Shown: piece after piece, positions 53,706 through 54,300 of the stretch
Position numbering within the stretch: the first letter of the stretch is position 1
Layout: the number at the start of each line of letters is the position of its first letter
Assembly: GCF_003790525.1 (NCBI RefSeq)
Contig: NZ_CP033635.1
DNA length: 64,000 nt
Strand: one strand, 5' to 3'
Source: Escherichia coli
GTDB taxonomy: Bacteria > Pseudomonadota > Gammaproteobacteria > Enterobacterales > Enterobacteriaceae
Made by a program: the position numbers and the translations under genes
The notes under the pieces: generated by a model
Told to the model about the DNA's origin: nothing
The model's input: only the letters and a program-made list of their open reading frames with translations
Databases searched by the model: none

Positions 53706-53781
53706 TGGTGGGTCGTGCAGGATTCGAACCTGCGACCAATTGATTAAAAGTCAACTGCTCTACCAACTGAGCTAACGACCC
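53706..53781 (-). tRNA. lysQ: tRNA-Lys (anticodon UUU), 76 nt with encoded CCA
   Basis: Reverse complement GGGTCGTTAGCTCAGTTGGTAGAGCAGTTGACTTTTAATCAATTGGTCGCAGGTTCGAATCCTGCACGACCCACCA; gene name by position is tentative. Confidence 0.93.
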
Positions 53782-53829
53782 ATACGGGTGTTACCTGAAA
53801 GATTTCTACTCGGAACCAATCTTTAAAAT

Positions 53830-53905
53830 TGGTGGGTCGTGCAGGATTCGAACCTGCGACCAATTGATTAAAAGTCAACTGCTCTACCAACTGAGCTAAC
53901 GACCC
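53830..53905 (-). tRNA. lysY: tRNA-Lys (UUU), 76 nt
   Basis: Identical tRNA-Lys sequence; gene name tentative. Confidence 0.93.
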
Positions 53906-53908
53906 GAG

Positions 53909-53984
53909 TGGTGGGTGATGACGGGATCGAACCGCCGACCCCCTCCTTGTAAGGGAGGTGCTCTCCCAGCTGAGCTAATCACCC
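53909..53984 (-). tRNA. valZ: tRNA-Val (anticodon UAC), 76 nt
   Basis: Reverse complement GGGTGATTAGCTCAGCTGGGAGAGCACCTCCCTTACAAGGAGGGGGTCGGCGGTTCGATCCCGTCATCACCCACCA. Confidence 0.93.
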
Positions 53985-54035
53985 GATACTGCGCTGGATA
54001 CTACAAACTACTTCCACCGAACCCACCGTAATTAG

Positions 54036-54111
54036 TGGTGGGTCGTGCAGGATTCGAACCTGCGACCAATTGATTAAAAGTCAACTGCTCTACCAACTGA
54101 GCTAACGACCC
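54036..54111 (-). tRNA. lysW: tRNA-Lys (UUU), 76 nt
   Basis: Identical tRNA-Lys sequence. Confidence 0.93.
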
Positions 54112-54113
54112 GG

Positions 54114-54189
54114 TGGTGGGTGATGACGGGATCGAACCGCCGACCCCCTCCTTGTAAGGGAGGTGCTCTCCCAGCTGAGCTAATCACCC
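54114..54189 (-). tRNA. valT: tRNA-Val (UAC), 76 nt
   Basis: Identical tRNA-Val sequence, 2 nt from the neighbouring tRNA-Lys. Confidence 0.93.
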
Positions 54190-54224
54190 GATACTACGCT
54201 GGATACTACAACTAACTATGTTAG

Positions 54225-54300
54225 TGGTGGGTCGTGCAGGATTCGAACCTGCGACCAATTGATTAAAAGTCAACTGCTCTACCAACTGAGCTAACGACCC
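54225..54300 (-). tRNA. lysT: tRNA-Lys (UUU), 76 nt; first gene of the array
   Basis: Identical tRNA-Lys sequence. Confidence 0.93.

Follow-up and report, generated by a model that had tools for sequence, protein, structure and literature searches.

The tRNA array between cpoB and nadA in the stretch of Escherichia coli DNA analyzed here (64,000 nt, termed the window) contains six genes, and we consider it likely that this state is real and that it arose from a seven-gene ancestor by loss of one 109 bp repeat period. The array is composed of four tRNA-Lys and two tRNA-Val genes. A near-identical genome, that of E. coli SMS-3-5, carries one further tRNA-Lys gene and the spacer that precedes it, and is otherwise almost indistinguishable from the window over its whole length.

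ARAGORN identified six tRNA genes in the 64 kb window, all on the minus strand and with outer limits at 53706 and 54300. The same six were recovered with the Rfam tRNA model at 79.2 bits for each Lys gene and 65.9 bits for each Val gene, and the K-12 genes score equally. No seventh tRNA was found anywhere in the window by either method. These results agree with an earlier note on this DNA, which had described four tRNA-Lys (UUU) and two tRNA-Val (UAC) genes at 53706-54300 in the order Lys-Val-Lys-Val-Lys-Lys from the promoter side. The anticodons assigned by ARAGORN are UUU for Lys and UAC for Val, and its coordinates give that same order from promoter to terminator.

Organization of the operon and comparison with K-12

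The array is an ordinary E. coli lysT/valT polycistronic tRNA operon. It is located between cpoB (ybgF; 54465-55256, minus strand) and nadA (52414-53457, minus strand) and is encoded on the strand common to both. Its features are as follows, from promoter to terminator.

54301-54464, minus strand: leader of 164 nt, from the cpoB stop codon to the first tRNA (K-12 homology)
54225-54300, minus strand: tRNA-Lys(UUU) gene 1, lysT equivalent (ARAGORN; Rfam, 79.2 bits; identical to K-12 lysT)
54190-54224, minus strand: spacer 1, 35 nt, without RtT-like insert (135 nt in K-12)
54114-54189, minus strand: tRNA-Val(UAC) gene 2, valT equivalent (ARAGORN; Rfam, 65.9 bits; identical to K-12 valT)
54112-54113, minus strand: 2 nt spacer CC, after Val gene 2
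54036-54111, minus strand: tRNA-Lys(UUU) gene 3, lysW equivalent (ARAGORN; Rfam; K-12 match)
53985-54035, minus strand: spacer 3, 51 nt, without RtT-like insert (149 nt in K-12)
53909-53984, minus strand: tRNA-Val(UAC) gene 4, valZ equivalent (ARAGORN; Rfam; K-12 match)
53906-53908, minus strand: 3 nt spacer CTC, after Val gene 4
53830-53905, minus strand: tRNA-Lys(UUU) gene 5, lysY equivalent (ARAGORN; Rfam; K-12 match)
53782-53829, minus strand: spacer 5, 48 nt, without RtT-like insert (146 nt in K-12)
53706-53781, minus strand: tRNA-Lys(UUU) gene 6, the probable deletion junction and lysZ/lysQ 'fusion' copy (ARAGORN; SMS-3-5 alignment)
53673-53703, minus strand: Rho-independent terminator hairpin, AAAAAAGCGCC-CUAAA-GGCGCUUUUUU (folding; K-12 identity)

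All four Lys copies have one sequence, an exact string match to K-12 lysT, lysW, lysY, lysZ and lysQ, and the two Val copies likewise agree fully with each other and with K-12 valT and valZ. Repetition is not confined to the genes. The final ~23 nt of spacer 3 repeat the end of spacer 1. With some 23 nt of upstream sequence included, the Val repeat forms a 99 nt unit with 99% identity between its copies (53908-54006 and 54113-54211). This extended Val repeat suggests that the Lys-Val-Lys-Val portion of the array may have arisen by duplication of a Lys-Val unit of ~205 nt.

The 170 nt immediately upstream of the array are identical to those of K-12 except for two SNPs. The operon promoter should lie in the 164 nt leader, in which a simple consensus scan gave no match to a sigma-70 promoter. 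At the other end, a strong hairpin, followed by a U-run, begins 3 nt past the last Lys gene. The hairpin has a predicted folding energy of -19.1 kcal/mol (z = -5.2), and none of 200 shuffled sequences was as stable. A simple terminator scan did not detect it, and pairing of the A/U runs into the stem is the probable reason. Its sequence is that of the K-12 lysQ terminator, placing one Rho-independent terminator directly 3′ of the last Lys gene; the same terminator sequence recurs at lysV.

In K-12, the operon is expressed as one transcript of more than 1100 nt, from which RNase P first cuts off the terminator and then frees the tRNAs singly in the 3′-to-5′ direction (PMC4176162). Because the leader, genes and terminator of the window match those of K-12 in sequence, we infer that transcription and RNase P processing proceed in a K-12-like manner. 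Specifically, a single promoter would give a single precursor with a Rho-independent end, which RNase P would cut from 3′ to 5′. Two structured RNAs expected in E. coli were also detected in the window: a CpoB/ybgF intercistronic RNA thermometer at the pal-cpoB junction (RF02782, 140 bits; 55227-55365, minus strand) and a Moco riboswitch upstream of moaA (RF01055, 103 bits; 18812-18956, minus strand).

The K-12 operon shares with the window its cpoB-nadA location, gene order, tRNA sequences, CC and CTC Val-Lys spacers and terminator. However, its array contains seven genes in 1099 nt, whereas that of the window contains six in 595 nt; the earlier note had given the K-12 number correctly. Most of the difference in length is due to RtT-like elements. 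The K-12 locus contains five matches to RtT (Rfam RF00391), four in spacers and one in the trailer, whereas the window contains none at the gathering score. Each long K-12 spacer is composed of an insert of ~98-100 nt, which closes with a copy of the 3′ end of tRNA-Lys (ATCCTGCACGACCCACCA), followed by the short spacer of the window, such that the window spacers correspond to the tails of K-12 spacers. The trailer element of K-12 lies in a duplicated-terminator trailer. Of the 504 nt by which the two arrays differ, 395 nt are accounted for by four missing spacer inserts, whose absence is common to the window, SMS-3-5 and Nissle, and 109 nt by the deletion specific to the window. If the whole lysQ unit is counted, the loss relative to K-12 is 208 nt, since the spacer of this unit also carries an RtT-like insert.

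RtT-like inserts are present or absent spacer by spacer between strains. To judge by the sequences at their ends, the inserts could have been gained at the tRNA 3′ end, or else lost through precise excision between short repeats. K-12 is a distant comparator, and is not the best one for the window array.

Comparison with SMS-3-5

Among complete E. coli genomes, neither a 1401 nt query nor a 20 kb query returned an identical locus, and no one-piece match exceeded 99.6%. A query consisting of the flanks only brought up SMS-3-5 (NC_010498.1), whose flanks are 100.0% identical to those of the window and whose array is 704 nt long with five Lys genes. This genome ranked low with array-containing queries, probably because its alignment is divided into two pieces that overlap on the repeated Lys gene.

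When the whole 64 kb window was aligned to SMS-3-5 positions 763,452-827,560 (reverse complement), only three differences were found. The first is an A/G SNP at window position 27504 that replaces Ala with Thr at BioA residue 350. The second is a run of five rather than six T residues at ~48757, in the aroG-gpmA intergenic hairpin. The third is the absence from the window array of 109 bp, corresponding to spacer 6 (33 nt) and one 76 nt tRNA-Lys gene. Spacer 6 has the sequence TCCTGAATGATTAAAGCAGCATAATCCCGCAAG and in SMS-3-5 follows the sixth gene and precedes a further tRNA-Lys. No 15-mer of this spacer occurs anywhere in the 64 kb window.

The lysT operon of SMS-3-5 (NC_010498.1, 773152-773855) shares with the window its six genes, spacers 1 to 5, leader and terminator, and both arrays are without RtT-like inserts. 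SMS-3-5 has seven genes, and the window lacks exactly 109 bp of that arrangement. Subtraction of these 109 bp from the SMS-3-5 sequence reproduces the window sequence exactly, with no scar or filler. Both K-12 and SMS-3-5 have seven genes at this locus rather than six, and relative to the latter one tRNA-Lys gene is missing together with its spacer. The absence of one Lys gene had been proposed in the earlier note from comparison with K-12.

Two further observations concern the genes in this region. zitB (50719-51660, plus strand) is split into open reading frames of 146 and 161 aa and is annotated in SMS-3-5 as an 'internal stop' pseudogene; the split is also present in a draft contig with 100% identity to the window there. 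In addition, the SMS-3-5 annotation places a small hypothetical gene and a RelE/StbE-family toxin gene between rhlE and dinG (window ~2750-3470, minus strand).

A less probable explanation, flagged in the earlier note and deserving serious attention, is that a true seven-gene array was collapsed in assembly by the skipping of one Lys-spacer 6-Lys loop. The 76 bp repeats are identical, and an assembler using a k-mer below 76 would place all the Lys genes in one graph node and make spacer 6 a self-loop that can be skipped. Short-read drafts do struggle at this locus, as 4 of 10 contigs retrieved with NadA stop at or inside the array or terminator. Also, one of the two other differences from SMS-3-5, the T5 versus T6 run, is a change in homopolymer length, and the source of the window does not appear among the RefSeq complete genomes searched. 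However, all other repeat junctions in the window array were assembled in the right order, and the other retrieved drafts break at the array and none collapses it. The same six-gene architecture also occurs in finished genomes, namely EC22, C25 and those of the O157:H7 family, indicating that it is biologically real elsewhere.

The BioA SNP provides a further argument against a generally error-ridden source. The T350 allele is rare, unlike the CpoB, NadA and TolA proteins of the window, which are too widespread to be diagnostic. It recurs in an independent assembly, GCA_034460245.1, which over 11.9 kb matches the window at 100% identity on a contig that stops short of the tRNA array. The window therefore represents a real lineage very close to SMS-3-5.

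Copy number in E. coli and tRNA-Lys dosage

The operon varies in gene number, with five to nine genes in the cpoB-nadA array of complete E. coli genomes. Representative layouts are given below, where K denotes tRNA-Lys, V denotes tRNA-Val and numerals are spacer lengths in nt.

Window: K-35-V-2-K-51-V-3-K-48-K, 6 genes
SMS-3-5, Nissle, MS1170: K-35-V-2-K-51-V-3-K-48-K-33-K, 7 genes
K-12: K-135-V-2-K-149-V-3-K-146-K-132-K, 7 genes
O157:H7 PA20, 2017C-4109, 2022H047: K-35-V-2-K-51-V-3-K-146-K, 6 genes
EC0585: K-35-V-2-K-51-V-3-K-33-K, 6 genes
EC22, C25: K-35-V-2-K-51-V-3-K-48-K (the architecture of the window on another background), 6 genes
M8: K-135-V-2-K-146-K-33-K, 5 genes
1303: ...K-146-K-132-K-132-K, 8 genes
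SF-166: ...K-48-K-48-K-48-K-33-K, 9 genes

Six-gene arrays occur in O157:H7, O121:H19, EC0585, EC22 and C25, with at least three different structures. The arrays of O157:H7, 2022H047, EC0585, EC22 and C25 share with the window the order K-V-K-V-K-K, comprising four Lys and two Val genes. Unlike the window, O157:H7 and 2022H047 have a 146 nt spacer 5 that retains its RtT-like insert. EC0585 keeps spacer 6 and is without spacer 5, and thus carries an independent deletion that differs from that of the window. EC22 and C25 have the exact spacing of the window, but are followed by a 277 nt trailer of the Nissle kind. Among arrays with other gene numbers, M8 has lost a Lys-Val unit, strain 1303 has duplicated the spacer 6 unit and SF-166 has triplicated the spacer 5 unit. 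Every array change seen in these other E. coli strains involves a whole repeat period.

As many as 398 of 5426 complete E. coli genomes, most of them O157:H7, contain the junction in which spacer 5, a Lys gene and the terminator follow one another. Spacer 6 is present in 4991 of these 5426 genomes and absent from ~435; this count was obtained with a 126 nt query of the EC0585 type at ≥80%, and it measures spacer 6 because a Lys gene plus this spacer makes up 86% of the query. An evenly spaced sample gave 45 rows with visible counts, of which 37 have seven genes, four have four Lys and two Val genes, and one each has 4K+1V, 5K+1V, 6K+2V and 7K+2V. When two samples are pooled, four Lys genes are found in 13 of 92 rows (~14%), although all these frequencies are skewed toward the most-sequenced lineages. 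In E. coli, arrays of six genes are common and have several origins, and the event in the window is an ordinary one of a kind already known.

In O157:H7 PA20, both tRNA-Val copies (positions 1035-1110 and 1240-1315 of the retrieved locus) share a T-to-G change relative to the Val genes of K-12 and the window (GGGGGTCGG to GGGGGGCGG), which looks like concerted evolution of the two copies by gene conversion.

To our knowledge, and as the earlier note stated, tRNA-Lys(UUU) is the only lysine isoacceptor. A transcript of the window operon is expected to yield four tRNA-Lys molecules instead of five, with an operon Lys:Val ratio of 4:2 instead of 5:2, whereas the sequences of all the tRNAs should be unaffected by the deletion. 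K-12 has six tRNA-Lys(UUU) genes, five in the lysT operon and one, lysV, in the valU operon (PMC4176162, PMC11480407). If the source genome of the window carries lysV, its tRNA-Lys genes would number about five instead of six. The earlier note expected an altered tRNA-Lys dosage; the genome-wide change would be from six to five, and not from five to four, once lysV is counted. The lysT transcription unit, with five of the six UUU-anticodon genes, is essential, and deletion of the whole unit is lethal unless complemented since lysV alone is insufficient (PMC11480407). The six-gene state is evidently tolerated, because the sampled O157:H7 genomes are fixed for it.

It is conceivable, but in our judgment improbable, that loss of the Lys gene was selected in this lineage as an adjustment of tRNA-Lys supply or of the Lys:Val ratio. 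The range of five to nine genes across E. coli and the fixation of some states in whole lineages such as O157:H7 would fit such tuning, as would the dosage sensitivity evident in the extreme case, where lysV alone cannot support growth (PMC11480407). However, a high mutation rate of tandem repeats combined with near-neutrality explains this pattern equally well, and the deletion in the window is confined to a branch of very recent origin, as there are only two other differences in 64 kb. We give similarly little credence to a more general version of this proposal, in which the array is a fast-mutating copy-number locus through which selection retunes the supply of tRNA-Lys(UUU), the window being a recent step on an SMS-3-5 background.

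The window array itself matters little, since it adds a further allele to a copy-number polymorphism of tandem tRNA genes that is already known and frequent. When near-identical strains are compared, the locus could nevertheless serve as a sensitive indicator of how recently they diverged or of how well they were assembled. The range from five to nine genes also means that tRNA gene counts from K-12 should not be taken for granted in other strains, for example in the calculation of tRNA adaptation indices. If the change in dosage affects tRNA-Lys levels or the decoding of AAA and AAG, it would provide a natural isogenic pair for the study of tRNA gene dosage.

Direction and mechanism of the change

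Two lines of evidence indicate that loss of a gene, rather than gain, distinguishes the window from SMS-3-5. First, spacer 6 has no sequence relationship to spacer 5, yet both are present in K-12, Nissle and SMS-3-5, which argues that the seven-gene array is the older state. Second, genomes that encode exactly the CpoB or NadA protein of the window have seven genes in every array that could be parsed (five loci besides SMS-3-5), and this distribution likewise points to seven genes as older and six as derived.

The opposite direction, in which six genes are ancestral for the lineage and SMS-3-5 gained its seventh by duplication, was rejected as very improbable: unit duplications do happen at this locus (SF-166 and strain 1303), but duplication of the window unit would repeat spacer 5, as in SF-166, and cannot create the unrelated 33 nt spacer 6, a unique sequence conserved across lineages (K-12, Nissle, SMS-3-5 and the 4991 of 5426 genomes counted above), and the retrieved genomes with the exact CpoB of the window have seven genes wherever the array is parsable.

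Loss of one period from a seven-gene array can be accounted for by the repeats themselves. Short, closely spaced direct repeats in bacteria delete at a high rate, largely without RecA. In the ancestral array, two identical 76 bp Lys genes separated by 33 bp would misalign, and either replication slippage or unequal sister-chromatid recombination would then drop exactly one period and leave an intact hybrid gene. The last gene of the window array is best described as a lysZ/lysQ hybrid, because the breakpoint can be placed only as lying inside the 76 bp repeat. From the structure of this product, misalignment between identical Lys repeats is the most likely mechanism. Recombination between identical repeats had been suggested in the earlier note, and the absence of an exact 109 bp period relative to SMS-3-5 supports that suggestion as the probable route of loss.

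Other products predicted by the same process are found in the population, namely the loss of a neighboring unit in EC0585, the loss of a Lys-Val unit in M8, and the gains in 1303 and SF-166.

The proposed event closely resembles the repeat-mediated deletion and duplication of tandem units. As in those systems, the change in the window amounts to one period between identical direct repeats, with an intact hybrid copy remaining. The reciprocal duplications that are expected of repeat-mediated change also occur in the population, as exemplified by 1303 and SF-166. At the lysT/valT locus, repeat-mediated deletion is proposed from the structure of its products, and the six-gene array of the window is probably one of these products.
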